This document shows, one piece after another, positions 13,253 to 32,386 of a DNA stretch of 37,129 bases. The position numbers were made by a program, and so were the translations under genes. Every line of letters begins with the position of its first letter. The first letter of the stretch is position 1. The stretch comes from a virus (lineage: Duplodnaviria > Heunggongvirae > Uroviricota > Caudoviricetes), in the IMG/VR virus record IMGVR_UViG_2872174743_000010, positions 1-37,129 of that record. The stretch is one strand, 5' to 3'. The notes beneath the pieces were generated by a model. That model was given only the letters and a program-made list of their open reading frames with translations. It ran no database searches and was not told the origin of the DNA.

Positions 13253-13262
13253 GGTGACTTTT

Positions 13263-13656: not shown

Positions 13657-13700
13657 CGTAGATCATGCAGGTGCATGAAAACCACTACATAAAGCGGGCA

Positions 13701-13719: not shown

Positions 13720-13788
13720 TGCGCGCTAGGTATAAGTGTGTAAAATAATTCCAAAATAAATCATCACTAATGAAGTGAGAGGGTAATA

Positions 13789-16303: not shown

Positions 16304-16410
16304 TTTTTTGCATCTTCAGCGTGTATCTGCACGCTGAAGAAATTCATAAAAACTGCTGCCTATTAATAAATTTTTTTAGCTGAGTTAAAGAACCTCATTT
16401 AGTGATTACG

Positions 16411-17445
16411 TTAAGTAGCTAGTTTATAACTATCAAATTTAACAATGTTATCACTTACCAATTTATTTATTTCCATCATTCTTTTTTGTAACGGTATTAA
16501 CTCGTTACGTACAAACACCAGGCTCGCCTTCTCCACATCCCCAAACCCCCCGACATTATTAGGCATAATCCCCATCATTTGCGGTGGCACACGATGCGCC
16601 GCCATCATGTCATCCCGGCTCACGTTCTTGATGTTCAGAAACTCATCCTTCGCCGCGACTTCTGACAACGGGATGATCTGAAGCCCGTCCTTTTTGCCGT
16701 TAGGCGAGTACATAAACAGATTGCGGAAGTTACCTGGTCCTTTGGCGCTTTTCATCGCATTGCGGAGGTTGTTCACATCCTCCTGGTTTTGCGCGGCATC
16801 GGTCATGTACATGATGAAGCCTGCATGACTGCCGTTAATGTAATACTATCGGCGGAACAGCGTGGCGGACTCGTTGAGCAGGGCTGACGGAATGGCAGAA
16901 AGGTAACCTGGCAGGCCGTAGATCTCTTGGTTGATGTCCGGTTCCATCAGATGAAAGATGCTTCCTTTCGTGAACTGATACGGCTGCGTGGTCATGCCGT
17001 ATTGCACAAACCAGTAGGTATCCAGGTCTAATCCGCGTCGGGTGTATTTTGCCAGAGCAGGCTCAAGAGCGATGACCTCTCCGAACCGGTTTGTGCGTTT
17101 CTCCAGGTAAGCGTTACCAAATACCAGATAATCCTGCACAAAACGTGAAAAAGCCTGCTGGCTGAGCAGCGGGTGAGGGATGTAGGTACTGATCAGAATG
17201 TTGCATTTCACCGCAATTGGTGAACTGTGATGCACGGCGGCGCGGAAGGTGCGCGCCAGTCCGTCAAAACTCACTGGCGGCTCATACCAGCGATCTGTCT
17301 GTACGCATTCCACATAGTCCAGTAGTTCACGGCGGTCCAGAACCGGAACGGGATCGCCGAAGCTGAATGCTTCGGCTGAAGTCTGGTTTTTATGCTGGGT
17401 CTGTTTCGTCGCCGCAGCGCGGTTCTTCTTACTCTTTCCCATCAA
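16411..17445 (-). pseudogene. Q: Portal protein (P2 gpQ-like) interrupted by an in-frame TAG
   Basis: Track ORFs 16846..17445 and 16411..16812 are in the same frame; protein reads ...ATLFRR-stop-YYINGSHAGFIMYMTDAAQ...; the TAG is at 16846-16848 on the minus strand. Confidence 0.8.
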
Positions 17446-19208
17446 AAAATCTCCACAATATTGCTGGTATTGGCGGACTCGCCCTGCAGCGGTTCGTTAA
17501 ACAGTGCGTGCATTGTTGCCCAGGCCAGATCGGCATGGCTGGCTTCTTCGCTGCGGCTGGCTTCATAGGTCGGGCGGTTGCCGCTGGCGGTGGTGGCGCG
17601 ACGGATTGCCATGAATGACTGCGCAATGTCGGTGTGCCCGGCGTCAAACTCAAGACGGCGGTGGCTGATAATGTCGTAGGCCTTGAGTACCAGGGCGTTT
17701 TTAACGTTGGGGTTGTAGACAAACTCCCGGACGGCAGGAAAAAACGCTTTCACGTTCTCGTAAACCCCGTGACCAACGCCGGTTGAGTCGATGCCGATAT
17801 AGGTCACGTTGTACTGTTCAGTCAGTTTTTTGATGGCGTAAGCCTGGGCGCGAAAGTCCATTCCGCGCCACTGGTGACGCTCAAGAATGCGGAACTTACC
17901 GCCTGGCACGGCTGGCGGTGCCACCACCACGCATCCGGCGCTGTCGCCGTTCTGCGTACCTTTTGCCGGGTCATAACCGATCCACACTTCGCGCCAGCCA
18001 AACGGGCGCAGGGCCAGTGCATGAAAGTCGGTCCAGACTTCCCAGCTGTCCACCATGCACGCCTGCAATTCGCTGAGCGGGAACACGGACGCGAGATCGT
18101 CCACGAACTCGCACATCAGCAGGTTCTGGTATTCGTCAGGGCTGTACTCCATGCGCAACTGGTCAAGGTCGAACAGGTTACAGGCGCCGCGCACCGCATC
18201 TTCCACGGTGACTATCTGGCGGTATTGCCCGTCTGCGCACAGCAGGCCGGGGGCCAGATTGCTGTGGGACAGGTCGATGTCCACCTTGTCAGCTTTGTTG
18301 CGCCCACGGTTGAACAGCGCACCGGACCAGAACGGATAAGCACTGTGGGTCAGACTGGATGGTGTGGAAAAATAGGTCTGCCGCCATTTCTTGTGAATAG
18401 CCATACCAGAAGCCACTTTGCGTAGCTCCTGAAATTTCGGTATCCAGAAATATTCATCCAGATACAGGTTACCGTGATAACTCTGGGCAGTGCGGGCATT
18501 GGTGCCGAGGAAATACAGTGTGGCCCCGTTGGGAAGCACCATCGGATCGCCTTTCAGCTCCACCTCCACTTCTTTGGCAAAGTCGATGATGTACTGTTTG
18601 AAGACGTGGGCCTGTGCCTTACTGGCAGAAAGGAAAATCTGGTTACGTCCGGTAAGCAGGGCGTCAATCAGGGCTTCACGGGCAAAATAGAAGGTCGCGC
18701 CGATCTGGCGTGACTTCAGCAGGTTGCGGATGCGGTTGGTTTTTCCGGCTTCCCACCAGTGGCGCTGGTAGTTGAACATGGAGGAATGGAAATTTTTTTC
18801 CAGCTTCTCAATCTGGTCATCGGTGAAAACATTCTTTTCAGGCTGACGGCGTGGGCCTTTGTTGCGGTTGGCGACGTTAGGGTTTAAGTCGGCTTCGTTG
18901 CCGCCATTGTTAAACTTGCCGATCCGCGCGTGGCGCTCAGACTGGCGCGCCAGCAGGTCAATATCTTTGAAATCTTTCCCTTCTTTGTGCTCCTTCATGA
19001 TGAGCTGGCAGTAGCGTGCGGCGGTGGTGAGCTGCATCTGATCCAGAGGCCCATAGTCACCCCACTTGTCGCGTTTTTTCCAGCTGTAAACGGTTGCAAC
19101 TTTCTCGCCCAGCATTTCAGCAATGCGGGCTACGCGGTATCCCTGAAAGTACAGCAGCATGGCCTGCCGACGGGGATCGAGATCTGCGGGTGTCAGTGTG
19201 GTGTTCAT
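17442..19208 (-). CDS. P: Terminase large (ATPase) subunit, P2 gpP-like
   Basis: 588 aa; collinear with P2 gpP as remembered; start overlaps the portal gene. Confidence 0.9.
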   Translation of the reverse strand: MNTTLTPADLDPRRQAMLLYFQGYRVARIAEMLGEKVATVYSWKKRDKWGDYGPLDQMQLTTAARYCQLIMKEHKEGKDFKDIDLLARQSERHARIGKFNNGGNEADLNPNVANRNKGPRRQPEKNVFTDDQIEKLEKNFHSSMFNYQRHWWEAGKTNRIRNLLKSRQIGATFYFAREALIDALLTGRNQIFLSASKAQAHVFKQYIIDFAKEVEVELKGDPMVLPNGATLYFLGTNARTAQSYHGNLYLDEYFWIPKFQELRKVASGMAIHKKWRQTYFSTPSSLTHSAYPFWSGALFNRGRNKADKVDIDLSHSNLAPGLLCADGQYRQIVTVEDAVRGACNLFDLDQLRMEYSPDEYQNLLMCEFVDDLASVFPLSELQACMVDSWEVWTDFHALALRPFGWREVWIGYDPAKGTQNGDSAGCVVVAPPAVPGGKFRILERHQWRGMDFRAQAYAIKKLTEQYNVTYIGIDSTGVGHGVYENVKAFFPAVREFVYNPNVKNALVLKAYDIISHRRLEFDAGHTDIAQSFMAIRRATTASGNRPTYEASRSEEASHADLAWATMHALFNEPLQGESANTSNIVEIF

Positions 19209-19254
19209 GGCACAAACCTACAGCCTTGAATGAAGGCTTTCCCCGCCTGCGGTT

Positions 19255-19272
19255 TGTGTGGTTGTCGGTACA
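19255..19272. promoter_or_regulatory. TGT-N12-ACA element in the divergent P/O promoter region (Ogr/B-type late activator site)
   Basis: TGTGTGGTTGTCGGTACA in the 142-bp spacer between the divergent terminase and scaffold genes. Confidence 0.4.
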
Positions 19273-19350
19273 AATACCGCGCATTGTTTCACTGCCCCTA
19301 TCACCGCAACCATAAGGCTCCAGTAAGTTTTTTCTAACGGAGCACGGCTC

Positions 19351-20184
19351 ATGACAGTGAAAGCAAAGCGTTTTCGCATCGGGGTGGAAGGTGCCACCAC
19401 CGACGGACGCGAAATCCAGCGTGAATGGCTGGAACAGATGGCAGCCAGCTATAACCCGGCGGTGTATACCGCGCTGATTAACCTTGAGCACATCAAGTCT
19501 TATCTGCCGGACAGCACCTTTAACCGCTACGGCAAGGTGACGGCGCTGTTTGCTGAAGAAATCACGGAAGGTCCGCTGGCAGGCAAGATGGCGCTGTATG
19601 CTGACGTTGAGCCAACGGAGTCCCTGGTGGAACTGGTGAAAAAAGGCCAGAAATTATTCACCTCTATGGAAGTCAGCCCGAAGTTCGCTGATACGGGCAA
19701 AGCCTACCTGGTCGGCCTGGCTGCCACTGATGACCCTGCCAGTCTGGGCACTGAAATGCTGACATTCAGCGCCAGTGCAGCCCATAACCCGCTGGCAAAC
19801 CGCAAGCAGAATCCCGCCAATCTCTTTACCGCCGCAGAGGAAACGGTGATCGAACTGGAAGAAGTCCAGGACGACAAACCGTCCCTGTTTGCCCGCGTCA
19901 CGGCGCTGTTTACCAAAAAAGAGCAGTCCGATGACGCCCGGTTCTCTGATGTGCATAAGGCCGTGGAGCTGGTCGCCACTGAGCAGCAGAACCTGAGCGC
20001 ACGCACCGAAAAATCCCTGTCTGAGCAGGAAGAACGCCTGTCTGAGCTGGAGACTGCCCTGCAGGCACAGCAAACCGCCTTTAACGAACTGGTGGACAAG
20101 CTGAGTCATGAAGACAGCCGCCAGGACTACCGCCAGCGTGCAACAGGCGGTAACGCCCCCGCTGACACTCTGACCAATTGCTGA
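19351..20184 (+). CDS. O: Capsid scaffolding protein, P2 gpO-like
   Basis: 277 aa, MTVKAKRFRIGVEGATTDGREIQREWL..., acidic coiled-coil C-terminus; synteny P-O-N. Confidence 0.85.
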   Translation: MTVKAKRFRIGVEGATTDGREIQREWLEQMAASYNPAVYTALINLEHIKSYLPDSTFNRYGKVTALFAEEITEGPLAGKMALYADVEPTESLVELVKKGQKLFTSMEVSPKFADTGKAYLVGLAATDDPASLGTEMLTFSASAAHNPLANRKQNPANLFTAAEETVIELEEVQDDKPSLFARVTALFTKKEQSDDARFSDVHKAVELVATEQQNLSARTEKSLSEQEERLSELETALQAQQTAFNELVDKLSHEDSRQDYRQRATGGNAPADTLTNC

Positions 20185-20200
20185 TGGAGCACAAAACCTG

Positions 20201-21259
20201 ATGAAGAAGAATACCCGCTTTGCTTTTAACGCTTACCTGCAGCAACTGGCGCGTCTGAACGGTGTGGCAGTTGAAGAACTGTCCAGCAAGTTCACCGTAG
20301 AGCCGTCCGTGCAGCAGACGCTGGAAGACCAGATCCAGCAGTCCGCCGCTTTCCTGACTCTGATTAACGTCACGCCAGTGACTGAGCAGTCCGGTCAGCT
20401 GCTGGGGTTGGGAGTTGGCAGCACCATTGCCGGAACCACTGATACCACTGCGAAAGAGCGTGAACCTGTCGATCCGACGCTGATGGTCGATGTGGAATAT
20501 AAATGCGAGCAGACCAACTTTGACACGGTGCTGACCTACGCGAAGCTGGACCTGTGGGCGAAGTTTCAGGATTTTCAGGTGCGTATCCGTGACGCCATCG
20601 TGAAACGTCAGGCACTGGACCGCATCATGATCGGCTTTAATGGCGTGAAGCGTGCGAAAACCTCCAACCGTAGCGAAAACCCGCTGCTGCAGGATGTGAA
20701 TAAAGGCTGGCTGCAGAAAATCCGTGAGGATGCACCGGATCACGTCATGGGCAGCACCACCACGGGCGGTGAAACCACACCGGGCGCAGTGAAAGTCGGG
20801 AAAGGTGGCGAATATGCCAACCTGGACGCCGTGGTGATGGATGCCGTCAATGAGCTTATCGACGTGGTCTACCAGGACGATGACGATCTGGTGGTGATTT
20901 GCGGTCGTGAACTGCTGTCTGACAAGTATTTCCCGCTGGTCAACAAAGAGCAGGAAAACAGTGAAAAACTGGCTGCCGATATGATCATCAGTCAGAAACG
21001 CATGGGTGGCCTGCAGGCCGTGCGTGCGCCGTTCTTCCCGCCGAATGCGCTGCTGATCACCCGTCTGGATAACCTGTCCATCTACTGGCAGGAAGACACC
21101 CGCCGCCGTTCAGTTATCGACAACCCGAAACGTGACCGGATTGAAAACTTTGAATCCGTTAACGAAGCCTATGTGGTTGAGGACTACCGCTGCGCCGCAC
21201 TGGTGGAAAACATCCAGATTAGTGATTTCAGCGCCGCCGCAGCCGAAACCGGAGCGTAA
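20201..21259 (+). CDS. N: Major capsid protein, P2 gpN-like
   Basis: 352 aa; ...TRFAFNAYLQQLARLNGV...KFTVEPSVQQTL...IMIGFNGVKRAKTS...VKVGKGGEYANLDAVVMDA..., highly similar to P2 N as remembered. Confidence 0.9.
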   Translation: MKKNTRFAFNAYLQQLARLNGVAVEELSSKFTVEPSVQQTLEDQIQQSAAFLTLINVTPVTEQSGQLLGLGVGSTIAGTTDTTAKEREPVDPTLMVDVEYKCEQTNFDTVLTYAKLDLWAKFQDFQVRIRDAIVKRQALDRIMIGFNGVKRAKTSNRSENPLLQDVNKGWLQKIREDAPDHVMGSTTTGGETTPGAVKVGKGGEYANLDAVVMDAVNELIDVVYQDDDDLVVICGRELLSDKYFPLVNKEQENSEKLAADMIISQKRMGGLQAVRAPFFPPNALLITRLDNLSIYWQEDTRRRSVIDNPKRDRIENFESVNEAYVVEDYRCAALVENIQISDFSAAAAETGA

Positions 21260-21262
21260 TCC

Positions 21263-21913
21263 ATGAGCCTGAGTCCCGCACGGCAGCATCGCCTGCGCGT
21301 TCAGGCTGAACAGGCCGCCCGTGAGGGTGGCAGTGTTCGCCACGCATCGGGCTATGACCTGATGCTGCTGCAACTGGCGGAAGACCGCCGCCGTCTCAAG
21401 GGCGTTCAGTCCACGGTCAAAAAAGCGGAAATCAAAGTGGAGCTGCTGCCGAAGTACGCCGCCTGGGCGGAGGGTGTCCTGGCTGCCGGAGGCGCTCAAC
21501 AGGATGACGTGCTGATGTACGTGATGTTGTGGCGCATTGATGCCGGAGATTATGCCGGGGCGCTGGAGATCTGGCGTCATGCCCTGCGTCATGGATGGGT
21601 GATGCCGCTGGGCAACCGCAACGTGCAGACCGTGCTGACAGAGGAAATGGCAGATGCAGCGCAGAGCGCAATGCTTGCCGCCACCGGCTTTGATGCCGAT
21701 CTGTTGCTGCAGACGCTGGAGCTGACAGACGGTCTGGATATGCCGGACCAGTCACGGGCACGTCTGCATAAAGCGATTGGCGCGGTCCTGAGTGAAAGCA
21801 ATCCGGCTTCCGCCCTTAATCATCTCAACCATGCGTTACAGCTCGATCCCCGCTGTGGCGTGAAAAAAGACAAACAGCAGCTGGAGCGCAGACTGCGCAA
21901 TGACAGCCGCTGA
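21263..21913 (+). CDS. M: Terminase small (endonuclease) subunit, P2 gpM-like
   Basis: 216 aa directly after N; synteny and size. Confidence 0.75.
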   Translation: MSLSPARQHRLRVQAEQAAREGGSVRHASGYDLMLLQLAEDRRRLKGVQSTVKKAEIKVELLPKYAAWAEGVLAAGGAQQDDVLMYVMLWRIDAGDYAGALEIWRHALRHGWVMPLGNRNVQTVLTEEMADAAQSAMLAATGFDADLLLQTLELTDGLDMPDQSRARLHKAIGAVLSESNPASALNHLNHALQLDPRCGVKKDKQQLERRLRNDSR

Positions 21914-22008
21914 CAGAACGTGCCCCCGCGCACGGGCGGCACGGGGTGGCGAAAGGCACAGCCACATCAAAACCCCGTCCACCGCCCTTTATTTCAGGAG
22001 AAAGCAGC

Positions 22009-22455
22009 ATGAAGTTTGTTGCGCCAGAACAGGCACCGGAACAGGCGGAAATCATTAGAAATACGCCGTTCTGGCCTGATGTGGACCTGTCGGAGTTTCG
22101 CAGTGTCATGCGCACTGACGGCACGGTGACGCAGCCGCGTTTAAAGTAGGTTGCACTGTCGGCAATTTCGGAGGTTAACGCAGAGCTGTATGAATTTCGC
22201 AGACGCCAGCAGATGCTGGGGTATGCGTCGGAACAGCTGGACGGGAAAAGTGAGCGCATTCAGCACTATTTCAACGCGGTTTACTGCTGGGCTCGCGCCA
22301 TGCTCAACGAACGTTTCCAGGACTATGACGCCACGGCATCCGGTGCGAAGCGGGGCGAAGAACTGGCGGAAGCAAGCGGTGATTTGTGGCGTGACGCCCG
22401 CTGGGCCATCAGCCGGGTGCAGGACGCGCCGCACTGCACAGTGGAGCTTATCTGA
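22009..22455 (+). pseudogene. L: Head completion protein (P2 gpL-like) interrupted by an in-frame TAG
   Basis: MKFVAPEQAPEQAEIIRNTPFWPDVDL...TQPRLK-stop(TAG 22147-22149)-VALSAISEVNAELYEFRRRQQMLGYASEQ...; the two parts share one frame and together align with gpL. Confidence 0.75.
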
Positions 22456-22658
22456 TGAAAGTGCGTGCGCATCAGTATGACACGGTGGACGCGCTTTGCT
22501 GGCGTCATTACGGGCGCACGCAGGGTGTCACGGAGCAGGTACTGAAGGCAAATCCGGGGCTTGCCGAATACGGCCCCTTTGTACCTCACGGGCTGCAGGT
22601 GGAGCTGCCGGACATTCCGACCACCACCACCGTGCAGACCGTCCAGCTATGGGACTGA
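22455..22658 (+). CDS. X: Tail protein X (P2 gpX-like)
   Basis: 67 aa, MKVRAHQYDTVDALCWRHYGRT...; ATG overlaps the gpL stop. Confidence 0.8.
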   Translation: MKVRAHQYDTVDALCWRHYGRTQGVTEQVLKANPGLAEYGPFVPHGLQVELPDIPTTTTVQTVQLWD

Positions 22659-22661
22659 ATT

Positions 22662-22877
22662 ATGACGCTTGAGCGAATCAGCGCCTTTATCACGTATTGC
22701 ATCGCCGTCGTGCTGGCCTGGCTGGGCGATTTGTCCATCAAGGATGCCTCAACGCTGGGCGGCCTGATGATTGGTGTGCTGATGCTGGCTATCAACTGGT
22801 ACTACAAACACAAAGCCTACCAGCTTCTGCGCGACGGGCAGATCTCGCGGGAGGACTATGAATCCATCAATCGTTAA
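22662..22877 (+). CDS. Holin (small, two predicted TM helices)
   Basis: 71 aa, hydrophobic segments ISAFITYCIAVVLAWLG and LGGLMIGVLMLAINWYY, charged C-terminus; immediately upstream of the endolysin. Confidence 0.6.
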   Translation: MTLERISAFITYCIAVVLAWLGDLSIKDASTLGGLMIGVLMLAINWYYKHKAYQLLRDGQISREDYESINR

Positions 22878-23370
22878 ACGCTGCCTTGTCGGGGCCGTGC
22901 TGGCTATTGCTGCCACGCTGCCGGGTTTTCAGCAGCTTCACACCTCCGTGGAGGGACTGAAACTGATTGCCGATTACGAAGGTTGTCGTCTGCAGCCGTA
23001 TCAGTGCAGCGCGGGTGTCTGGACCGACGGTATTGGTAATACGTCGGGCGTCATTCCCGGCAAAACCATTACGGAGCGACAGGCAGCAGAAGGGCTGATC
23101 TCCAACGTGCTGCGTGTGGAGCGGGCGCTTGAAAGGTGTGTGAAGCAACAGCCGCCGCAGAAGGTGTATGACGCTGCGGTGTCGTTTGCCTTCAACGTGG
23201 GTACGGGCAATGCCTGCAGTTCCACGCTGGTGAAATTGCTCAATCAGCGGCGCTGGGCGGATGCGTGCCGACAGTTGCCGCGCTGGGTTTATGTGAAAGG
23301 TGTTTTTAATCAGGGGCTGGATAACCGCCGTGCGCGGGAGATGGCCTGGTGTTTACAGGGAGCAAACTGA
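22858..23370 (+). CDS. Endolysin (lysozyme), probably with an N-terminal signal-anchor-release segment
   Basis: 170 aa; N-terminal KRCLVGAVLAIAATLPGF followed by a lysozyme-like domain (...EGCRLQPYQCSAGVWTDGIGNT...). Confidence 0.8.
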   Translation: MNPSIVKRCLVGAVLAIAATLPGFQQLHTSVEGLKLIADYEGCRLQPYQCSAGVWTDGIGNTSGVIPGKTITERQAAEGLISNVLRVERALERCVKQQPPQKVYDAAVSFAFNVGTGNACSSTLVKLLNQRRWADACRQLPRWVYVKGVFNQGLDNRRAREMAWCLQGAN

Positions 23371-23371
23371 A

Positions 23372-23749
23372 ATGAAAAAGAAATTAATCAGCGGGCTGTT
23401 TCTGATGTTATGGATGGCGCTGTTAATCGCAGCAATAGTGTATCCGCAGGGGATTTTTCCGGTACTGGCAGCGTCCGGCGTTTGGGTAGCCTGTTTACTG
23501 ACATGGGCGGTAATTCCGGTAGCACTGGCTTCGTTAATTAAGAATGGCCCGCTCTGGCAGGAGTTGAGGGCATCTTTACTGAAGACAATTACCCGAAAAG
23601 AAAACGTATTTATCAGCTGGGTGATACGATTGCTGATTGTCGTCAGTCTCGCCTGGACGGGGTGGGCCATTACCCTGGTCTTTTATCTGCTGACCGTTAT
23701 TGCCTTCTGGATCACCCGTAATCAGATGGCGCAACAGGTAGCCGCATGA
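23372..23749 (+). CDS. LysA-like membrane protein
   Basis: From the Met at 23372: MKKKLISGLFLMLWMALLIAAIVYP..., with several TM segments; sits in the P2 lysA position. Confidence 0.5.
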   Translation: MKKKLISGLFLMLWMALLIAAIVYPQGIFPVLAASGVWVACLLTWAVIPVALASLIKNGPLWQELRASLLKTITRKENVFISWVIRLLIVVSLAWTGWAITLVFYLLTVIAFWITRNQMAQQVAA

Positions 23750-24174
23750 ACCGGTTGCTGCTGGTTGTGCTGGCGTTATTATTGGCGGCGCTGGGCTGGC
23801 AGACGTGGCGGCTGGCTGATGCCAGCCAGACCATCAGCACGCAGGCAGACGAGCTGCAGAGCAAAAGCCAGGCACTGGCAAAGAGCAACAGCCAGCTTAT
23901 CAGCCTGTCCATTCTGACTGAAACCAATAACCGGGAGCAGGCGCGGCTCTATGCCGAAGCAGAACAGACCAGTGTACTGCTGAGACAACGACAACGCCGG
24001 ATTGAGGAACTGAAACGTGAGAACGAGGATTTACGTCGCTGGGCTGATACTCCTTTGCCTGCTGACATTATCCGGCTGCGGGAACGTCCGGCACTCACCG
24101 GAGGTGCAGCTTACCGTCAGTGGTTGTCCGCGAGTGACGCCGTGTCGGCTGGAGCAGGCAGCGCCGCGCACTAA
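23746..24174 (+). CDS. LysB-like inner-membrane spanin
   Basis: 142 aa, N-terminal TM (LLLVVLALLLAALGW) then coiled-coil; P2 lysB position. Confidence 0.65.
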   Translation: MNRLLLVVLALLLAALGWQTWRLADASQTISTQADELQSKSQALAKSNSQLISLSILTETNNREQARLYAEAEQTSVLLRQRQRRIEELKRENEDLRRWADTPLPADIIRLRERPALTGGAAYRQWLSASDAVSAGAGSAAH

Positions 24175-24307
24175 CGGTGATCTGAATGCGTTGCTGGATG
24201 AAACGGAGGCCGCCTGGGCGGTCTGTGCAGACAAAGTGGACATGATTATTGCGTGTCAGGAGCGAAATAGTGAACAAACCACAATCCCTGCGCCACGCCC
24301 TCAATAA
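24017..24307 (+). CDS. LysC-like outer-membrane spanin lipoprotein, embedded out of frame in lysB
   Basis: Lipobox LTLSGC followed by a proline-rich short protein; overlapping +1 frame within and beyond lysB, as in P2 lysC. Confidence 0.55.
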   Translation: MRTRIYVAGLILLCLLTLSGCGNVRHSPEVQLTVSGCPRVTPCRLEQAAPRTNGDLNALLDETEAAWAVCADKVDMIIACQERNSEQTTIPAPRPQ

Positions 24308-24701
24308 AGCAGTGCCTTATGTCCGTAATAACCCGGACAAACTGCATCTGTTTGTGGATAACGGTTCGCTGGTTGCCTCCGGGGCTAGCTCCATGTCATG
24401 GGAGTACCGCTACACCCTGAACGTGGTGATTGAAGATTTCAGCGGCGACCAGAATCTGCTGATGGCCCCGGTTTTGCTGTGGCTGCGGGATAACCAGCCC
24501 GATGCGATCAATAACCCGGCGTTACGGGAAAAGCTATTCACCTTTGAGGTGGATATTCTGCGCAACGATGTCTGTGATATCAGCCTTAACCTGCAACTGA
24601 CGGAGCGTGTGCTGGTCAGCACTGACGGCAGTGTGTCGAACGTTGAAGCGGTAGCGGAACCTGATGAACCTGAAGAAATGTGGACGGTGAAACGTGGCTG
24701 A
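24270..24701 (+). CDS. R: Tail completion protein R (P2 gpR-like)
   Basis: ...LHLFVDNGSLVASGASSMSWEYRYTLNVVIEDFSGDQNLLMAPVLLWLRDNQPD...; GTG start 7 nt after AGGAG. Confidence 0.75.
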   Translation: MNKPQSLRHALNKAVPYVRNNPDKLHLFVDNGSLVASGASSMSWEYRYTLNVVIEDFSGDQNLLMAPVLLWLRDNQPDAINNPALREKLFTFEVDILRNDVCDISLNLQLTERVLVSTDGSVSNVEAVAEPDEPEEMWTVKRG

Positions 24702-25095
24702 ATTGCAGAAGGTGGACGACTGGCTGAGTGCATTATTGGCGAATCTGGAGCCAGCCGCAAGAAGCCGCATGATGCGCCAGCTGGCGCAGGAACTGCGCCG
24801 GACACAGCAGCAGAACATCAGGATGCAGCGCAATCCAGATGGCAGCAGTTATGAGCCGCGCAGGGTAACAGCACGCAGCAAAAAGGGGCGCATCAAACGT
24901 CAGATGTTTACAAAGCTGCGCACCACAAAATACCTGAAAACTGCAGCCAGCGCCGATTCTGCCAGCGTACAGTTTGAAGGTAGGGTGCAGCGCATTGCCC
25001 GTATTCACCATTACGGCTTGAGTGATCGCGTCAGTCGAAAAGGTATTTATACCATCTATGCGAAAAGGCAGTTATTAGGTTTTAATGTCCGGTAA
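24694..25095 (+). pseudogene. S: Tail completion protein S (P2 gpS-like), C-terminus cut by IS1
   Basis: 133 aa frame runs into the IS1 left end (stop supplied by GGTAATGC); P2 gpS is longer as remembered. Confidence 0.65.
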
Positions 25096-25145
25096 TGCTG
25101 CCAACTTACTGATTTAGTGTATGATGGTGATTTTAAGGTGCTTGC

Positions 25146-25421
25146 GTGGCTTCCATTTCCATCAGATGTCCTTCCTGCTCCGCTATTGAAGGCGTGGTGC
25201 GTAACGGCAAAAGCACTGCCGGACATCAGCGCTATCTCTGCTCTCATTGCCGTAAAACATGGCAACTACAGTTCACTTACACCGCCTCTCAGCCCGGTAC
25301 GCACCAGAAAATCATTGATATGGCCATGAATGGCGTCGGATGTCGCGCCAGTGCACGCATTATGGGCGTTGGCCTCAACACGGTTTTACGTCACTTAAAA
25401 AACTCAGGCCGCAGTCGGTAA
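25146..25421 (+). CDS. insA: IS1 InsA
   Basis: [43 protein letters not shown]... Confidence 0.9.
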
Positions 25422-25843
25422 CCTCGCGCATACAACCGGGCAGTGATGTGATTGTCTGCGCTGAAATGGACGAACAGTGGGGCTACGTCGGTGCTAAATC
25501 ACGTCAGCGCTGGCTGTTTTACGCGTATGACAGGATACGGAGGACGGTTGTGGCGCACGTCTTCGGTGAACGCACTCTGGCCACACTGGAGCGTCTTCTG
25601 AGCCTGCTGTCGGCCTTTGAGGTCGTGGTATGGATGACGGATGGCTGGCCGCTGTATGAATCACGCCTGAAGGGAAAGCTGCACGTTATCAGCAAGCGTT
25701 ACACTCAGCGCATTGAGCGACATAATCTGAATCTGAGACAACATCTGGCAAGGCTGGGACGGAAGTCACTGTCGTTCTCAAAATCGGTGGAGCTGCATGA
25801 CAAGGTCATCGGGCATTATCTGAACATAAAACACTATCAGTAA
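25340..25843 (+). CDS. insB: IS1 InsB frame (expressed as InsAB' by frameshifting)
   Basis: ...[45 protein letters not shown]...HYLNIKHYQ; full-length, unlike the copy at 9280. Confidence 0.85.
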
Positions 25844-25858
25844 GTTGGCAGCATTACC

Positions 25859-26390
25859 ATGCAGCCCTCACAATATAGTTAAAAGCGACATTTCGTGGGC
25901 GTGTTTCATTCGCACCTGCAGGTTTAGTCGTTGCCGCAACAACACCACCCTCTGTAATAGCCGGGTTGGGAATTGGGTAATTATCGAAGTCAATGGCCGG
26001 AGACAGGGGCGTGATTTGTTTTAAAATCGTGGTGCCTGTAAAACTTTCCAGAGTCTGGTCGTTAGTTCGTGAAGTCCAGATTCCCCAATAGTGGTTATGA
26101 CTGACAATCGCACCGTCCTGAAGCGTTAATAATCCCCTTCCGTTATCCACTCCACGTCCGTCATCCCAGCCACGAATAAACTCACCGCGTAAATCAGGCA
26201 ATTTATTTGTCGGGTAAGCCTTTGCCAGTTCCGGGTATTCTTCAGCAGAAAAAGCCGCACCATTGCATTTCAGCCAGCCTGTCGGCGGAGTGGCTGAAGG
26301 CCACGGAACAGGCACACCAACAGGTAATGCAGAGCCTTCTCCCAAACCAACGTTTAAGAAAATGCAGAGATAATGGCTAACTGGCATCAT
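25859..26390 (-). pseudogene. Orphan tail-fibre variable C-terminal segment (tail-collar-type), cut at its 3' end by IS1
   Basis: ...GWLKCNGAAFSAEEYPELAKAYPTNKLPDLRGEFIRGWDDGRGVD..., a phage tail-collar/fibre-tip motif; frame enters the IS1 right end; 5' end abuts the invertase crossover site. Confidence 0.6.
26337..26362. promoter_or_regulatory. Candidate Pin/Gin-type recombination crossover site
   Basis: TTCTCCCAAACCAACGTTTAAGAAAA shows the TTC...AAACC-NN-GGTTT...GAA dyad pattern of hix/gix/pix sites; lies inside the fibre segment about 55 bp upstream of pin; no second copy found. Confidence 0.45.
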
Positions 26391-26417
26391 CCCCGGTTTT
26401 TATTCAGGGGATTGATC

Positions 26418-26984
26418 ATGCTTATTGGCTATGTACGCGTGTCAACAAATGACCAGAACACCGATTTGCAACGTAATGCACTGAACTGCGCGGGATGTGA
26501 GCGGATTTTTGAGGATAAAATCAGTGGCACTAAGCCCGACAGACCGGGGCTTAAAAAACTGCTCAGGACACTATCGGCAGGAGACACGCTGGTTGTCTGG
26601 AAGCTGGACAGACTGGGACGCAGTATGCGGCATCTTGTTACGCTGATAGAAGAGTTGCGCCAGCGTGGTGTGAATTTCCGAAGCCTGACTGACAGTATTG
26701 ATACCAGTACCCCAATGGGCCGTTTCTTTTTTCACGTCATGGGGGCTCTGGCTGAAATGGAACGTGAACTGATAGTTGAACGTACCAGAGCAGGGCTGGC
26801 TGCAGCTCGTGCCAAAGGCAGAGTAGGTGGACTCCGTCCTAAGTTGACCACCGAACAGTGGGCACAGATTGGACGTTTACTCGAGGCCGGAGAATCAAGA
26901 CAGCGTATTGCACTGATTTTTGATGTGGGCGTTTCTACCATTTATAGAAAATTTCCGGCGAATGAGAGCAATGAATCGCCCTGA
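26418..26984 (+). CDS. pin: Serine DNA invertase (Pin/Gin/Hin/Cin family)
   Basis: MLIGYVRVSTNDQNTDLQRNAL...GDTLVVWKLDRLGRSMRHL...GALAEMERELIVERT..., near-identical in pattern to e14 Pin as remembered; C-terminal HTH. Confidence 0.9.
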   Translation: MLIGYVRVSTNDQNTDLQRNALNCAGCERIFEDKISGTKPDRPGLKKLLRTLSAGDTLVVWKLDRLGRSMRHLVTLIEELRQRGVNFRSLTDSIDTSTPMGRFFFHVMGALAEMERELIVERTRAGLAAARAKGRVGGLRPKLTTEQWAQIGRLLEAGESRQRIALIFDVGVSTIYRKFPANESNESP

Positions 26985-27032
26985 GTCAGTATTATTTTGA
27001 TTTTTCCTGTAAGCGGACAAATACCGTCATTT

Positions 27033-27050
27033 TGTGTGAATAACGACACA
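27033..27050. promoter_or_regulatory. TGT-N12-ACA element upstream of FI (Ogr/B-type late promoter activator site)
   Basis: TGTGTGAATAACGACACA about 80-95 bp upstream of the FI start codon. Confidence 0.4.
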
Positions 27051-27126
27051 ACTGCGCTTAGCTGTTTGTCAGGCACAATCACTTCAACATAGGGCGAAGC
27101 CTAATCCAATCAGGAGGTTCGCCACT

Positions 27127-28299
27127 ATGGCTCAGGATTACCACCACGGGGTGCGCGTTGTTGAAGTCAACGAAGGCACCCGATCCATTACCACGGTGAG
27201 CACCGCCATCGTGGGTATGGTCTGCACGGGCGATGATGCCGATGCAAAAATGTTTCCTCTTAATAAACCTGTGCTGATCACTGATGTGCTGACCGCCAGC
27301 GGTAAAGCGGGTGAGTCTGGCACGCTGGCCCGTTCGCTGGATGCCATCGCTGACCAGGCAAAACCCGTGACCGTTGTTGTGCGTGTGCCGCAGGGTGAAA
27401 CGGAAGAAGAAACCACAACCAATATCATTGGCGCAGTGACCGCCGAGGGTAAAAAAACAGGTATGAAAGCCCTGTTATCTGCCCAGTCACAGCTCGGCGT
27501 TAAACCGCGCATTCTCGGCGTGCCAGGTCACGACACGAAGGCGGTAGCTACTGAGTTGCTGAGCGTGGCGCAAAGCCTGCGTGGATTTGCTTACCTGTCA
27601 GCGTATGGTTGCAAGACGGTGCAGGAAGCAATCACTTACCGTGAAAACTTCAGTCAGCGTGAAGGAATGCTGATCTGGCCCGACTTTACTGGCTGGGACA
27701 CGGTGCTGAATGCCGAAGCAACGGCTTATGCCACCGCCCGTGCGCTCGGTCTGCGCGCTAAAATTGATGAGCAGACCGGATGGCACAAAAGCCTGTCCAA
27801 CGTGGGCGTGAACGGTGTCACCGGAATTTCTGCTGATGTGTTCTGGGATCTGCAGAACCCGGCAACCGATGCAGGTCTGCTTAACCAGAACGATATCACC
27901 ACGCTTATCCGCAAAGACGGTTTCCGCTTCTGGGGTTCCCGCTGTCTGAGCGATGATCCGCTCTTTGCCTTCGAAAACTACACCCGCACGGCGCAGGTGC
28001 TGATGGACACGATGGCAGAAGCGCACATGTGGGCGGTGGACAAACCGCTGAACCCGTCGCTGGCCCGCGACATTATCGAAGGTATCCGCGCCAAAATGCG
28101 TAGCCTGGTCAGTCAGGGCTATCTCATTGGTGGTGATTGCTGGCTGGACGAGTCGGTGAACGATAAAGACACGCTGAAAGCCGGGAAACTCACCATCGAT
28201 TACGACTACACGCCAGTGCCGCCACTTGAAAACCTGATGCTGCGTCAGCGCATCACCGATCAGTACCTGGTGAATTTCTCCAGCCAGGTCAGCGCGTAA
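27127..28299 (+). CDS. FI: Tail sheath protein (P2 gpFI-like)
   Basis: 390 aa, [32 protein letters not shown]...; GGAGG RBS. Confidence 0.9.
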
Positions 28300-28308
28300 G
28301 GGGACAAC

Positions 28309-28824
28309 ATGGCTTTACCACGCAAATTAAAACACCTGAACCTGTTTAACGACGGGAACAACTGGCAGGGGATCGTTGAGTCGCTGACGCTGCCGAAATT
28401 CACCCGCAAATATGAGAAGTATCGCGGCGGCGGTATGCCCGGAGCGGTGGATGTGGATCTGGGACTGGATGACAGTGCACTGGATACAGAATTTTCCATT
28501 GGTGGTACTGAACTGCTGCTGTTTAAGCAGATGGGCAAAGCCACGGTGGATGGCATCCAGCTGCGCTTTACCGGCTCTATTCAGCGTGATGATACCGGGG
28601 AAGTGCAGGCCGTGGAGCTTGTGGTGCGTGGACGTCACAAAGAAGTAGATTCCGGCGAGTGGAAGACGGGCGAAAGCAACACTACCAAAGTGACCAGTAC
28701 CAACAGCTACGCGAAGCTGACCATCAATGGTGAGGTGCTCTATGAAGTGGACCTGATCAACATGGTGGAAATTGTGGACGGTGTGGACCTGATGGAAGCG
28801 CACCGCAACGCCCTCGGCCTCTGA
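28309..28824 (+). CDS. FII: Tail tube protein (P2 gpFII-like)
   Basis: 171 aa, MALPRKLKHLNLFNDGNNWQGIVESLTLPKFT... Confidence 0.9.
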   Translation: MALPRKLKHLNLFNDGNNWQGIVESLTLPKFTRKYEKYRGGGMPGAVDVDLGLDDSALDTEFSIGGTELLLFKQMGKATVDGIQLRFTGSIQRDDTGEVQAVELVVRGRHKEVDSGEWKTGESNTTKVTSTNSYAKLTINGEVLYEVDLINMVEIVDGVDLMEAHRNALGL

Positions 28825-28878
28825 TGTATCTGAACGGCGCGGAATGCCGCGCCAGAACCTAATTTACAGGACAACAAA

Positions 28879-29181
28879 ATGAGCGATAAGCAGACTGAAA
28901 AGACCATTCAACTGGATACTCCCATCATGCGCGGTAAAACAGAAATTACCGAAATTGTGTTGCGTAAACCGCAGTCCGGTGCGCTGCGCGGCACACGCCT
29001 GCAGGCCATTATGGATATGGATGTGAACGCGATGATGACCGTGATCCCCCGCATCTCCAGTCCGGCACTGACTGCACAGGAAATTGCAGAGATGGACCCG
29101 GCAGATCTCACTGCCATGTCGGTTGAGGTTGTCACTTTTTTGTTGAAGAAGTCGGTGCTTGCCGGTTTACCGACAGCCTGA
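28879..29181 (+). CDS. E: Tail assembly chaperone gpE
   Basis: 100 aa, MSDKQTEKTIQLDTPIMRGKTEITEIVLRKPQSGALRGTRLQ... Confidence 0.8.
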   Translation: MSDKQTEKTIQLDTPIMRGKTEITEIVLRKPQSGALRGTRLQAIMDMDVNAMMTVIPRISSPALTAQEIAEMDPADLTAMSVEVVTFLLKKSVLAGLPTA

Positions 29182-29315
29182 CGGTTGACGATCTGGTGGC
29201 TGATATCGCCACCATCTTTCACTGGCCGCCATCCGTTACTGACGTTATGCCGCTGACCGAAGTGCTGGAATGGCGGGATAAAGCGATTCAGAGAAGCGGG
29301 GCCAGCCATGAGTGA
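28879..29315 (+). CDS. gpE+E' fusion via programmed -1 frameshift at T TTT TTG (about 29136-29142)
   Basis: Slippery heptamer TTTTTTG near the end of E; the -1 frame then reads VEEVGACRFTDSLTVDDLVADIATIFHWPPSVTDVMPLTEVLEWRDKAIQRSGASHE and stops overlapping the T start, as in P2 E/E'. Confidence 0.6.
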
Positions 29316-32300
29316 CAATAACCTGCGTCTGCAGGTGATTCTTAATGCGGTTGACAAACTCACCCGCCCATTTCGATCCGCGCAGGCCAGTTCAAGAGAA
29401 CTGGCTGCTGCTGTCAAAAAATCCCGCGATGCAATAAAGCAGCTTGATCAGGCCGGGAGCAGTCTGGACAGCTTCCGAAAGCTGCAGGCAGAAAATCAGA
29501 AATTAGGCGACAGGCTGAACTATGCCCGCCAGCGTGCAAATTTGCTCAGTCAGGAACTGGGAGCGATGGGGCCGCCTTCGCAACGTCAGGTTGTTGCTCT
29601 GGGCCGTCAACGGCTGGCTGTTCAGCGCCTGGAAGAACGCCAGAAAAAGCTGCAGCAGCAGACGGCGCTTGTGCGTGCAGAACTTTATCGTGCTGGTATT
29701 TCAGCTAATGATGGCGCCAGTGCGACGGCCCGCATTACCCGTGAAACGATGCGTTATAACAGGCAGCTTTCTGAGCAGGAAGCGAGGTTACGACGTGTCG
29801 GGGAGCAACAGCGAAAAATGCACGCCGCCCGGGGGGCTTACGCCAGGCGTCTTGAGGTAAGGGATCGTATTGCAGGTGCCGGAGCCACCACCACGGCTGC
29901 AGGGCTGGCAATGGGCGCACCAGTGATGGCGGCAGTAAAAAGCTATACCAGCATGGAAGATGCCATGAAAGGTGTGGCAAAGCAGGTCAATGGTCTGCGT
30001 GACGATAATGGCAACCGCACTGCGCGTTTTTACGAAATGCAGGGTGCCATCAAGGCTGCCAGCGAACAGTTGCCGATGGAAAACGGTGCTGTGGACTTCG
30101 CCGCACTGGTTGAAGGTGGTGCGCGCATGAACGTCGCAAACCCTGACGACAGCTGGGAAGACCAGAAACGTGACCTGCTGGCCTTCGCCAGCACGGCGGC
30201 AAAGGCGGCAACAGCCTTTGAACTGCCAGCGGATGAACTGTCAGAAAGTCTGGGGAAAATCGCCCAGCTCTACAAAATCCCTACCCGCAATATTGAGCAG
30301 CTCGGTGATGCGCTGAACTATCTGGATGATAACGCCATGTCGAAAGGGGCGGACATCATTGATGTCATGCAACGCCTGGGCGGTGTGGCTGACCGTCTGG
30401 ATTATCGTAAAGCGGCGGCGCTGGGTTCCACCTTCCTGACACTCGGCGCTGCGCCTGAGGTTGCAGCCAGTGCAGCAAACGCGATGGTGCGTGAATTGTC
30501 CATTGCCACCATGCAAAGCAAGAGTTTCTTTGAAGGGATGAATCTGCTGAAACTCAATCCAGAAGTGATTGAAAAGCAGATGACGAAGGATGCGATGGGA
30601 ACTATCCAGCGGGTGCTGGAGAAGGTGAATGCGCTGCCACAGGATAAGCGCCTGTCTGCCATGACCATGTTGTTTGGTAAAGAGTTTGGCGATGACGCAG
30701 CGAAACTGGCAAACAACCTGCCGGAACTTCAGCGCCAGTTAAAACTGACTGCGGGCAATGATGCGCTCGGTTCCATGCAGAAAGAATCCGACATCAACAA
30801 GGATTCACTTTCTGCTCAGTGGTTGCTGGTCAAAACCGGAGCACAGAACACCTTCAGCAGCCTGGGGGAAACGCTGCGCCAGCCGCTGATGGATATTCTG
30901 TACACGGTGAAAAGCGTCACGGGGGCGTTGCGTCGCTGGGTGGAAGCTAACCCGGAACTGACGGGCACTCTGATGAAAGTAGCCGCTGTGGTAGCTGCCG
31001 TTACCGTGGGCCTCGGCACCTTAGAGGTGGCGCTGGCTGCAGTGCTGGGGCCGCTGGCAGTCATCCGTCTGGGATTCTCTGTGCTGGGTATCAAAACGTT
31101 ACCTTCCGTTACGGCAGCAGTAACCCGAACCAGCAACGCGTTGTCCTGGCTGGCTGGCGCACCACTGGCACTGCTGCGACGCGGGCTTGCTTCATCGGGC
31201 AACGCTGCAGGTTTACTTACTGCGCCGTTGTCGTCTTTGCGCCGCACGGCATCACTGACGGGAAATGTCCTGAAAACTGTAGCAGGTGCGCCGGTTGCAC
31301 TTTTGCGGGTCTGGATTATCCGGTTTACGTGCGGTTGCTGTGATGTTTATGAATCCACTGGCGGTACTACGCGGCGGACTGGCTGCCACAGGCACGGTGC
31401 TGCGTATGCTCGCATCCGGTCCACTGGCGATGCTGCGCGTTGCCCTGTATGCCGTCTCTGGTCTGTTAGGTGCTCTGCTCAGTCTGATAGGTCTTGTGGT
31501 TACTGCACTGGCGGGTGTGGCGCTGGTTGTCTGGAAATACTGGCAGCCCATCACCACATTTCTCGGTGGCGTGGTGGAAGGATTCAAAGCGGCGGCAGGT
31601 CCTGTCAGTGCCGCGTTCGAACCGCTTAAGCCTGTGTTCCAGTGGATTGGCGACAAAGTACAGGCGCTGTGGGGCTGGTTTACTGATCTGCTGACGCCCG
31701 TTAAGTCGACCTCTGCCGAACTGCAGAGTGCAGCGGCAATGGGGCGACGATTCGGGGAGGCTCTGGCGGAAGGGCTGAATATGGTCATGCATCCGCTGGA
31801 CTCCCTGAAATCCGGCGTTTCCTGGTTGCTGGAGAAACTTGGCATTGTCAGTAAAGAGGCCGCAAAGGCGAAACTGCCGGAAAGCGTGACGCGTCAGCAA
31901 CCTGCGACGGTGAATGCAGACGGTAAAGTGATGATGCCATCGGGTGGTTTTCCGTCATGGGGATATGGCTTTGCGGGGATGTATGACAGCGGCGGGTATA
32001 TCCCGCGCGGGCAGTTTGGCATCGTCGGTGAAAACGGGCCGGAAATTGTTAACGGCCCGGCAAATGTGACCAGCCGGAGAAATACAGCTGCACTGGCTGC
32101 CGTTGTTGCCGGAATGATGGGTGTTGCTGCTACGCCAGCAGAGCTTCCACCGTTGCACCCTTTGGCACTTCCCGCGAAAGGCGGTGAAGCGATGGTGAGT
32201 CGTGCAGCCACTGTGCCGCCCGTTCAACGGATTGAGGCACCGATGCAGATCATCATTCAAACGCAGCCAGGACAAAGTGCGCAGGATATTGCGCGGAAGG

Positions 32301-32386
32301 TGGCCCGCCAGCTTGATGAACGTGAACGCAGGCTGAAGGCAAAAGCCAGGAGTAACTACAGCGATCAGGGGGGATACGACGCATGA
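29308..32386 (+). pseudogene. T: Tail tape measure protein (P2 gpT-like), frameshifted near 31309
   Basis: Frame 1 (29308 onward) and frame 2 (ORF 31286..32386) together give one collinear tape-measure protein with repeated ...PLA.LR.G... motifs; the frames switch at a G-run (TTGCGGGTCTGG) around 31306-31312. Confidence 0.7.

Follow-up and report, generated by a model that had tools for sequence, protein, structure and literature searches.

A defective P2-like prophage at ybjL of a Shigella chromosome in which an IS1-associated deletion very probably froze a Pin-type tail-fibre switch

In the G-gin and C-cin switches of phages Mu and P1, a constant fibre N-terminus is combined with alternative C-termini and their chaperones through 26-bp crossover sites that have a 2-bp core. 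The Gin, Hin, Cin and Pin enzymes act only where two inverted sites share a supercoiled molecule with an enhancer in cis, and this Fis-bound recombinational enhancer normally lies in the 5′ part of the invertase gene. The 37,129-nucleotide stretch of viral DNA analysed here (the window) encodes a recombinase of the same family (E=2.5e-91 to the Gin structure 3UJ3 over residues 1-184, 184 residues in all), and its ancestral switch would have followed the same logic; Mu and P1, however, carry complete, functional switches in other phage backgrounds, whereas the window holds a single-site remnant. The P segment of e14 (stfP-tfaP-tfaE-stfE-pinE), likewise part of a defective prophage, resembles the locus in its invertase (155 of 185 amino acids, or 84%, identical between the window's Pin and K-12 PinE), in its pin-proximal site (1 of 26 nt different) and in its layout of cassette ORF, site and divergent pin gene, with the leader and the Collar half of StfE shared with the cassette in the window. 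In contrast to the window, which has lost one of the sites, one of the cassettes and the two tfa genes and whose host element is P2-like rather than e14, the e14 segment has kept both sites, its cassettes and its tfa genes and still inverts (PMC12529663). PinQ of Qin and PinR of Rac in K-12 offer a further likeness, as intact serine invertases in defective prophages unable to use a fibre switch of their own. PinQ, which is 38% identical to PinE, is reported to act in trans on the e14 segment (PMC12529663), whereas action in trans of the Shigella Pin is a candidate only.

We conclude that the window very probably contains a defective P2-like prophage, located at ybjL of a Shigella chromosome, in which an IS1-associated deletion of 5,984 bp froze a Pin-type fibre switch (Table 1). 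The gene order of P2-like phages (Peduoviridae; Q-P / O-N-M-L-X-Y-K-lysABC-R-S-V-W-J-I-H-G-FI-FII-E-T-U-D-ogr) is kept on both sides of the gap, while V-W-J-I-H-G (tfa) is absent, and the prophage is a remnant of a P2-like member, not a complete one. Absence of this block between S and FI had been noticed in the first-pass annotation, which proposed a comparison with intact P2-like prophages carrying invertases, and that comparison supports it. Three intact relatives were used: those of Escherichia coli UPEC-245U (CP049845.1) and E. coli ATCC 8739, and the classified P2-like phage pro483 (NC_028943.1). Their order is the predicted one, S-(cargo)-V-W-J-I-H-tfa-tfa′-cassette′-invertase-FI, and it matches the window on both sides of the gap. 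All three differ from the window in keeping S, the cargo gene, V, W, J, I, an H that is complete and includes the distal site, as well as the second cassette and the two tfa genes, with IS1 unannotated in the stretches compared; in ATCC 8739 and pro483 the Collar cassette is pin-proximal, in the same orientation as in the window.

The UPEC-245U prophage is intact, 99.6-99.8% identical and integrated at the same ybjL site (ybjL flank, 99.7%), and it allowed the loss to be delimited to the base. Identity is 99.6% across window positions 12018-25090 and 99.84% across 26337-31875, and exactly 5,984 bp present in UPEC-245U are absent in between, beginning at codon 133 of S and reaching as far as the point where the tfa gene adjoining the retained cassette starts. 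The lost block starts with the 3′ end of S and a DUF5677 cargo gene, runs through V, W, J and I to the constant part of H, which carries the second site, and also takes in the gp53-like cassette and the two tfa genes. The relatives carry their second crossover site within H, where the constant part meets the variable one (UPEC-245U 17700-17725; ATCC 8739 10624-10649). Because the distal site and the constant part of H are both inside the deleted block, the window is left with one site and without a constant fibre part. In an invertible fibre switch, the constant N-terminal part is encoded outside the segment, which itself holds two alternative C-terminal cassettes and a tfa gene for each of them; these are all present in ATCC 8739, UPEC-245U and pro483, compared with one cassette, no constant part and no tfa gene in the window.

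Table 1. Features around the deletion, in window coordinates
Feature	Position	Strand	Evidence
P2 gpR tail completion gene, intact	24249..24701	+	PF06891 E=1.2e-46; collinear with UPEC-245U, 99.6%
Truncated gpS gene (virion morphogenesis)	24694..25095	+	PF05069, TIGR01635; compared with the 147-aa S of UPEC-245U
IS1, complete 768-bp copy	25091-25858	+	Insertion-sequence anatomy, domains
Retained alternative tail-fibre cassette ORF, StfE-like	25854..26390	-	PF07484 Phage Tail Collar domain
Single pix-type crossover site, 26 bp, two 12-bp half-sites around a 2-bp core at 26349-26350	26337..26362		TTCTCCCAAACC AA CGTTTAAGAAAA
Pin-type serine DNA invertase gene, 188 aa, intact	26418..26984	+	Resolvase and HTH_7 domains
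Tail sheath gene FI, resumption point of the P2 late tail operon	27127..28299	+	Phage_sheath domains; collinear with UPEC-245U, 99.84%

The element that occupies the gap has the length (~768 bp) and inverted repeats (~23 bp) of the IS1 family. Its 23-bp terminal inverted repeats are exact (25091-25113 and 25836-25858), its genes insA (25146-25421) and insB′ (25340-25843) are intact, and a profile search identified the Zn_ribbon_InsA, HTH_Tnp_IS1 and DDE_Tnp_IS1 domains. The two frames are joined by an A6C frameshift motif (AAAAAAC) in the insA/insB′ overlap, and a 232-aa insA-insB′ fusion product is called in sister loci. On its left, IS1 truncates S after 132 of the 147 native codons, removing the last 15, so that the protein ends in ...LLGFNV followed by R and a stop from IS1; on its right, the stop codon of the cassette is broken after its first base, giving TGG TAA with one added Trp and the TAA inside IS1. 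A simple IS1 insertion directly duplicates about 9 bp of target on both sides. Here the 9-bp flanks differ (TTAATGTCC versus ATGCAGCCC), as first described when S was seen to be cut without target duplication, and the 40-bp flanks, searched for a cryptic duplication, hold none of 6 bp or more, their longest common string being 5 bp. Adjacent deletion and IS1 x IS1 recombination would each be expected to leave no duplication, so its absence argues against a simple insertion and not against the identity of the element as IS1.

Both of these routes leave one IS1 without target duplication, and the sequence here cannot separate them. We slightly favour one IS1 insertion, which would have been followed by an IS1-mediated adjacent deletion (intramolecular transposition), since this takes fewer events than two same-orientation IS1 copies and homologous recombination. 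The second route, in which two direct copies, one in S and the other at the cassette/tfa boundary, recombined in place of a one-step adjacent deletion, is a credible alternative that we hold tentatively, at somewhat under an even chance. It predicts the lack of a target duplication equally well, sister E. coli prophages have acquired single, independent IS1 insertions close to either end of the block (at an S-V hotspot and between the two tfa genes), and the window has a second, truncated IS1 in the same orientation at 8923-9571; yet it needs three events as opposed to two, and IS1 at one exact junction only was not seen in the index blocks sampled (24 of 345 for truncated S and 24 of 46 for the cassette) or in 5,426 E. 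coli genomes. Those same blocks yielded no intermediate with only one junction and no single IS1 with a target duplication, all contexts being already deleted, and for this reason the adjacent-deletion route is put forward as an inferred one.

The two junctions are widespread. Both of them, around a full IS1 on one contig, occur in at least eight independent Shigella assemblies with identical junction sequences in all eight, and seven of these are contigs of 4.3-4.8 Mb; complete genomes carrying both junctions include CP026805.1, CP026840.1, CP026828.1, CP026823.1 and PSSQ01000001.1. Junction-specific proteins are found in many NCBI assemblies (truncated S in 345 index blocks, the Trp-ended cassette in 46) under the record names Shigella dysenteriae or MULTISPECIES Shigella, and a search of 5,426 complete E. 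coli genomes returned no match spanning either junction. This recurrence marks a deletion that is fixed in a Shigella lineage, not an artefact. IS1 is highly repeated and often breaks or mis-joins short-read assemblies, and contigs with truncated S are mostly 5-20 kb, but a collapse or mis-join at IS1 is extremely unlikely to have produced the same pair of junctions on single contigs in eight independent assemblies, seven of them of megabase length. That an IS1-mediated rearrangement carried the block to another part of the chromosome, so that it was not lost, is also very unlikely. Relocation would be compatible with the missing target duplication and with the high rates of IS-linked rearrangement reported for Shigella genomes (PMC8072062), but a single prophage is collinear with both IS1 flanks in their native orientation, several extra steps would be required, and a distant site would still give no fibre gene at the locus. 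The geometry rules out relocation by a single IS1 x IS1 inversion, since the block would then still be at its original place, reversed and with an IS1 copy on either side.

The crossover site left beside pin (TTNTCNNAAACCNNNGTTTNNGANAA) has no other match in the window when up to 3 mismatches are allowed (0 expected by chance), in agreement with the single gix/pix-like site first reported at this position. A looser consensus scan allowing 2 mismatches gave 4 matches in total, a number reached in 4 of 100 shuffles; two are the real site read on both strands, and the other two, at 1730 and 12858, are weak and at chance level (the latter agrees at 14 of 26 positions and is in direct orientation). 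Neither the exact site at up to 3 mismatches nor the loose consensus at 2 mismatches thus revealed a second crossover site beyond chance level in the 37-kb window. The site is identical to the pin-proximal site of UPEC-245U, differs from that of ATCC 8739, as from that of e14, at 1 of 26 nt, and includes CCTTCTCCCAAACCAA, the inverted repeat that PMC12529663 gives for e14.

Where Gin, Hin, Cin and Pin require two inverted 26-bp sites, the window has one, compared with two in the intact relatives. Judged from the established mechanism of these invertases, a locus with one site could not invert, and with no constant part of H, no baseplate genes and no tfa gene it would make no fibre, which suggests that the switch is dead and frozen in cis. 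The first-pass annotation had described the switch as apparently locked, with one site, no constant fibre part and an intact invertase, and had named a second site with a constant fibre gene nearby as a finding that would overturn this; neither is present within the 37-kb window, and the description holds with the qualification that it applies in cis only.

The orientation of the remnant preserves an event older than the deletion. Window positions 25859-26353 match UPEC-245U 18203-17709 in reverse at 99.6%, and the inverted sites of UPEC-245U (17700-17725 and 19554-19579) have the inner half-site GGTTTGGGAGAA in common. When the 1,854-bp segment of UPEC-245U was flipped in silico, window positions 25859-27100 differed at 2 of 1,242 positions, compared with 363 without the flip, and the flanks of IS1 fell 5,984 bp apart on the flipped sequence. 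The remnant is therefore the exact crossover product of the UPEC-245U arrangement, which establishes a past inversion, and since the window is the flipped isoform, the switch inverted before the deletion froze the locus. In the ancestor, the constant 5′ part of H would have ended in a 26-bp crossover site. Beyond it there would have been 1,854 bp of invertible DNA holding two alternative C-terminal cassettes (Collar and gp53-like), each with its own tfa chaperone gene, and a second, inverted crossover site with the invertase gene adjoining. At the time of the deletion, the Collar cassette would have been next to pin in the 'off' orientation, and the IS1-associated event would then have removed everything from the last 15 codons of S through both tfa genes.

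The minus-strand ORF directly to the right of IS1 was initially taken for an orphan C-terminal fibre segment; its position and strand agree with that description, but it is not a ragged fragment: the ORF is the alternative cassette in full, and it has an ATG leader of its own on the pin-proximal side. Besides the crossover site, it comprises a 13-aa leader and a receptor-binding C-terminal part with the Collar domain, and it is identical at 163 of 164 amino acids to the C-terminus of H in UPEC-245U and at 108 of 168 to K-12 StfE, with which the leader is kept in common (MMPVSHYLCIFLNVGLGEG versus MPFACYFFIFINVGLGEG). The invertase gene after it was correctly recognised as intact, with full length and both domains (PF00239, E=3.7e-53; PF02796, E=1.5e-13), although its start is the ATG at 26418 and not the upstream in-frame ATG at 26373. 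Pin has the features of the Gin/Hin/Cin/Pin group, namely a resolvase domain with the YVRVS serine, a C-terminal HTH and close similarity to characterised invertases; the catalytic Ser9 (in MLIGYVRVST) aligns to position 9 of Gin 3UJ3, which is Ala in that structure. None of the NCBIfam models reached its cut-off on Pin. The gene differs from its UPEC-245U counterpart at 1 of 567 nt, and its first 200 nt match e14 pinE, which inverts experimentally (PMC12529663), at 174 positions (82-94% per 50-nt block), which is at most suggestive of a retained enhancer. A promoter scan around the site, pin and the end of IS1 gave 3 matches compared with 1.6 expected, which is chance level, and a possible hybrid promoter towards pin, with its -35 in the right end of IS1 (25845) and its -10 in the flank, was not taken as evidence.

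Survival of an intact pin alongside disrupted S, Q, L and T could suggest that the remnant was kept because it is useful, with Pin acting in trans on segments of other prophages and/or the StfE-like ORF encoding a protein of the surface or of exclusion. The cassette forms a complete ORF with a leader conserved with K-12 StfE, the repeat CCTTCTCCCAAACCAA is also found in the window site, and in K-12 the PinQ of one cryptic prophage inverts the e14 P segment, a leader-fused chimera blocking T2 adsorption (PMC12529663). We consider such a benefit unlikely, as no PADLOC defence-family model matched pin or the cassette, an intact 567-bp gene is expected by chance at the divergence of at most 0.1% between sister loci, and the K-12 blocker is an inverted chimera with a StfP-type end, the StfE-type arrangement kept here being the non-protective one (PMC12529663). 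With sister loci this similar, an intact pin says nothing for or against selection; most likely it persists because the lineage is recent and nearly clonal and the gene presents a small target, though it may retain a role in trans. Modelled on the PinQ/StfE2 system of E. coli K-12, a reading of the single-site remnant as a domesticated module, in which Pin would flip segments of other prophages in trans, or the lone site and distant pix-like sites would give large chromosomal inversions, and in which the frozen StfE-like ORF would be an envelope protein affecting phage adsorption, appears quite improbable.

The frozen switch is set in a prophage with other losses. Homology to UPEC-245U begins inside gene A (window position 12013), so the arm from the integrase to gene A is gone; portal, L and T are split, S, Q, L and T are disrupted, and copies of IS600, IS110, IS66 and IS1 are piled up to the left. 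Given these several other defects, the locked switch is one detail of a general decay. IS1 is the most abundant insertion sequence in Shigella, whose chromosomes hold 229-348 IS copies with IS1 dominant, and insertion sequences are tied there to deletions (PMC7373316). The event is ordinary insertion-sequence-driven prophage decay: as in IS1-mediated adjacent deletions and the IS-driven reduction of Shigella genomes, a single IS1 without target duplication replaces neighbouring genes, here in one more instance inside a prophage. Its significance beyond annotation is small. The near-identical intact relative lets the loss be reconstructed exactly, making this a cleanly resolved case of IS1-linked decay in which a 'fossil' of site-specific inversion was preserved by a later deletion, and the intact invertase, with a lone site at its side, is a candidate driver of inversion in trans or of secondary-site rearrangement in these strains. 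In many Shigella assemblies, the proteins annotated as a 178-aa 'phage tail protein' and a 133-aa 'virion morphogenesis protein' are junction products of the deletion.

Comparison of the window with intact invertase-carrying P2-like prophages (E. coli ATCC 8739, E. coli UPEC-245U/190328, and the classified P2-like phage Peduovirus pro483) confirmed the observation in the first-pass annotation that IS1 has replaced the V, W, J, I, H and G block, and supported its interpretation of a locked fibre switch. To this we add the exact extent of the deletion, a fossil inversion, the fixed state of the deletion in a Shigella lineage, and decay in the rest of the prophage; the kinds involved, namely IS1 deletions, Pin-type fibre switches of P2-like prophages, and intact invertases in defective prophages, are all well known. 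All three comparators carry the missing genes in the order R-S-(cargo)-V-W-J-I-H-tfa, followed on the other strand by tfa' and a fibre cassette, and then by invertase-FI. The UPEC-245U prophage (L002) is nearly the same element as that in the window, with 99.6% identity across window positions 12018-25090, 99.84% across 26337-31875, and the same chromosomal flank on the ybjL side (99.7%). Window 25859-26353 matches L002 in reverse (18203-17709), and the Collar cassette is fused to H in L002, whereas in the window it lies beside pin on the other strand. After in silico inversion of the 1,854-bp segment delimited by the midpoints of the two L002 crossover sites, window 25859-27100 showed 2 mismatches in 1,242 positions, compared with 363 against the unflipped arrangement. 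The IS1 flanks map to positions 13091 and 19076 of flipped L002, a precise loss of 5,984 bp that took the last 15 codons of S, the DUF5677 cargo gene, V, W, J and I, the constant part of H with the distal site, the gp53-like alternative cassette, and both tfa genes.

Features at the deletion junction, in place of the left arm, and in related prophages
Feature	Location	Strand	Description
IS66-family element	window 3767-6156		in place of prophage left arm
IS110/ISSso6-like element	window 6450-7625	minus	in place of prophage left arm
IS3/IS600 orfB	window 7780-8598		in place of prophage left arm
Gene S, truncated	window, starts 24694		PF05069, TIGR01635
IS1, complete copy	window 25091-25858		768 bp; 23-bp ends are exact inverted repeats
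Fibre cassette ORF	window 25854-26390	minus	Phage Tail Collar domain; directly right of IS1
Crossover site	window 26337-26362		TTCTCCCAAACC-AA-CGTTTAAGAAAA; near 5' end of cassette ORF
Invertase gene pin	window, starts ATG 26418		188 aa; full Resolvase and HTH_7 domains
Distal crossover site	L002 17700-17725		TTCTCACATACC-TT-GGTTTGGGAGAA; within H, where constant and variable parts join
Proximal crossover site	L002 19554-19579		adjoins invertase; identical to window site
IS1 insertion, E. coli strain 64 P2-like prophage	L024 7378-8075
IS1 insertion, E. coli CFSAN051542 P2-like prophage	L025 6056-6753

The IS1 copy at the junction has full-length Pfam matches for insA and insB' and, on sequence inspection, an AAAAAAC frameshift motif in their frame overlap. 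It interrupts S after codon 132 of 147, the product ending ...LLGFNV-R-stop within the element, and abuts the cassette ORF after the first base of that ORF's stop codon, with one Trp added and a TAA stop supplied within the IS1 end. The nine flanking bases are TTAATGTCC and ATGCAGCCC; string comparison of the two 40-bp flanks found at most 5 bp in common, and the element therefore lacks a target duplication, as had been claimed, with not even a cryptic one present. A sigma-70-like match (25845-25874, plus strand; -35 TTGGCA in the IS1 right end, -10 CACAAT in the flank) would direct transcription toward pin, antisense to the cassette ORF, although it is a consensus match only, and a promoter scan of the region around the site, pin and the IS1 end found 3 matches with 1.6 expected, which is chance level.

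The minus-strand fibre segment was described as carrying one gix/pix-like site, and this site is indeed the sole occurrence in the window at up to 3 mismatches (0 expected by chance), a loose consensus scan adding just two weak matches (1730 and 12858). It differs by 1 base from the e14 pin-proximal site and contains the e14 repeat CCTTCTCCCAAACCAA, as quoted in PMC12529663. The two L002 sites are in inverted orientation with the inner half-site in common, and the window site is their exact crossover product, in which the proximal site's pin-side half is joined to the segment end adjoining the distal site in L002. This shows that, in the lineage of this prophage, the switch inverted before the DNA was lost.

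The invertase, whose start was set by comparison with annotated relatives, is intact as first described: it matches Gin (PDB 3UJ3) with E=2.5e-91 over residues 1-184, retains Ser9, is 84% identical to K-12 PinE, and differs from the L002 gene at 1 of 567 nucleotides. These likenesses, together with the near-identical e14 site, justify the name "Pin-type". The eight sister loci show no substitution in pin, and the single gap, in one locus, comes from an assembly that has ten gaps in 20 kb; since sister divergence is at most 0.1% overall, a gene of 567 bp would be expected to stay intact by chance alone, and its integrity is no evidence of selection. Gin, Hin, Cin and Pin invertases require two inverted sites and an enhancer in cis, so that a locus with a single site should be unable to invert, and with no H constant part, baseplate or tfa genes no fibre could be built. 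From this established mechanism it follows that the switch would be frozen and functionless for the phage.

One can imagine that Pin has been kept for action in trans, that the frozen StfE-like protein is expressed, or both, because the cassette ORF joins a pin-proximal leader (MMPVSHYLCIFLNVGLGEG), of the same kind as in the K-12 e14 chimera, to a StfE-type Collar half. PinQ, from the cryptic Qin prophage, is reported to act in trans to invert the e14 P segment, and a chimeric ORF of pin-proximal leader and StfP C-terminus is reported to block T2 adsorption (PMC12529663). We consider such retained function very improbable: in K-12 it is the StfE-type arrangement that fails to protect (PMC12529663), promoter matches are at chance level, and PADLOC defence models gave no match for pin or the cassette.

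The 5,984-bp loss is probably IS1-associated, and two classical routes fit: IS1-mediated adjacent deletion, or homologous recombination between two direct IS1 copies. Nothing in the sequence alone separates them. A single IS1 insertion followed by adjacent deletion is slightly favoured because fewer events would be needed, while recombination between two copies, which calls for more, is a credible though somewhat less probable alternative. Sister prophages of E. coli carry independent single IS1 insertions, one in the S-V cargo hotspot and another between the tfa genes, and IS1 therefore often lands in this region; the prophage with IS1 between the tfa genes, inside the invertible segment, itself lacks most structural genes. 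No intermediate toward the deletion was found in 5,426 complete E. coli genomes or among the junction-protein matches listed. That one IS1 x IS1 inversion moved the block elsewhere was rejected on geometry, as the IS1 flanks stay collinear in native orientation. The S-V slot, which falls inside the deleted stretch, behaves as a variable hotspot; it holds a Sll1717-family P-loop ATPase in ATCC 8739 (L001 5526-7037) and a DUF5677 protein in UPEC-245U (L002 13142-14161).

Exact look-ups of the two junction-specific proteins found them in many public assemblies, the 133-aa truncated S being indexed in 345 blocks and the 178-aa cassette ending in Trp in 46; in the source records these proteins are named Shigella dysenteriae or MULTISPECIES Shigella, and neither junction occurs in the 5,426 complete E. 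coli genomes. Both junctions surround a full IS1 on one contig in at least eight independent assemblies (seven contigs of 4.3-4.8 Mb), and an assembly artefact at IS1 is therefore ruled out. The site and cassette ORF are the same as in the window in 7 of 8 assemblies, CP026842.1 having one gap in the cassette ORF, and CP026805.1 equals the window across 20.4 kb except for one gap. The junction is thus a fixed deletion in a Shigella lineage.

Decay extends well beyond this locus. The window is homologous to L002 only from 12013 onward, a point within replication gene A; the left arm (integrase, CI, cII, dam, and the remaining 5' part of A) is absent, with an IS pile, truncated IS1 included, in its place. 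Beyond the pile, 548-3283 holds pieces of another prophage, of lambdoid or Rac-like type (YdaT, HTH repressor, Rha/Ash). Portal gene Q (16411-17445) is split into 133-aa and 199-aa ORFs, and tape-measure gene T (29308-32386) into 773 aa and a remainder, although some of the sister Shigella assemblies have an unbroken T of 1,025 aa. The sister loci also have a split head-completion gene L, with the corresponding 80-aa piece at window 22213-22455; part of the variation among sister assemblies may reflect indel errors in them. The wider decay fits the IS expansion published for Shigella, where IS1 is more common than any other IS and where pseudogenes and deletions have been linked to IS (PMC7373316).

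A second IS1 copy at 8923-9571, in the same orientation as the junction copy and 99.5% identical to it, retains only the first 649 of 768 bp and gives way to an IS66-family element (9643-11975). A gene pair at 13789-16303, located between A and the portal gene and also annotated in the intact UPEC-245U relative, encodes a 549-aa AAA-ATPase and a 293-aa HNH-endonuclease; it matches the PADLOC candidate system PDC-M01A/B (E=3e-55 and 1e-33) and has a weaker match to Septu PtuA.
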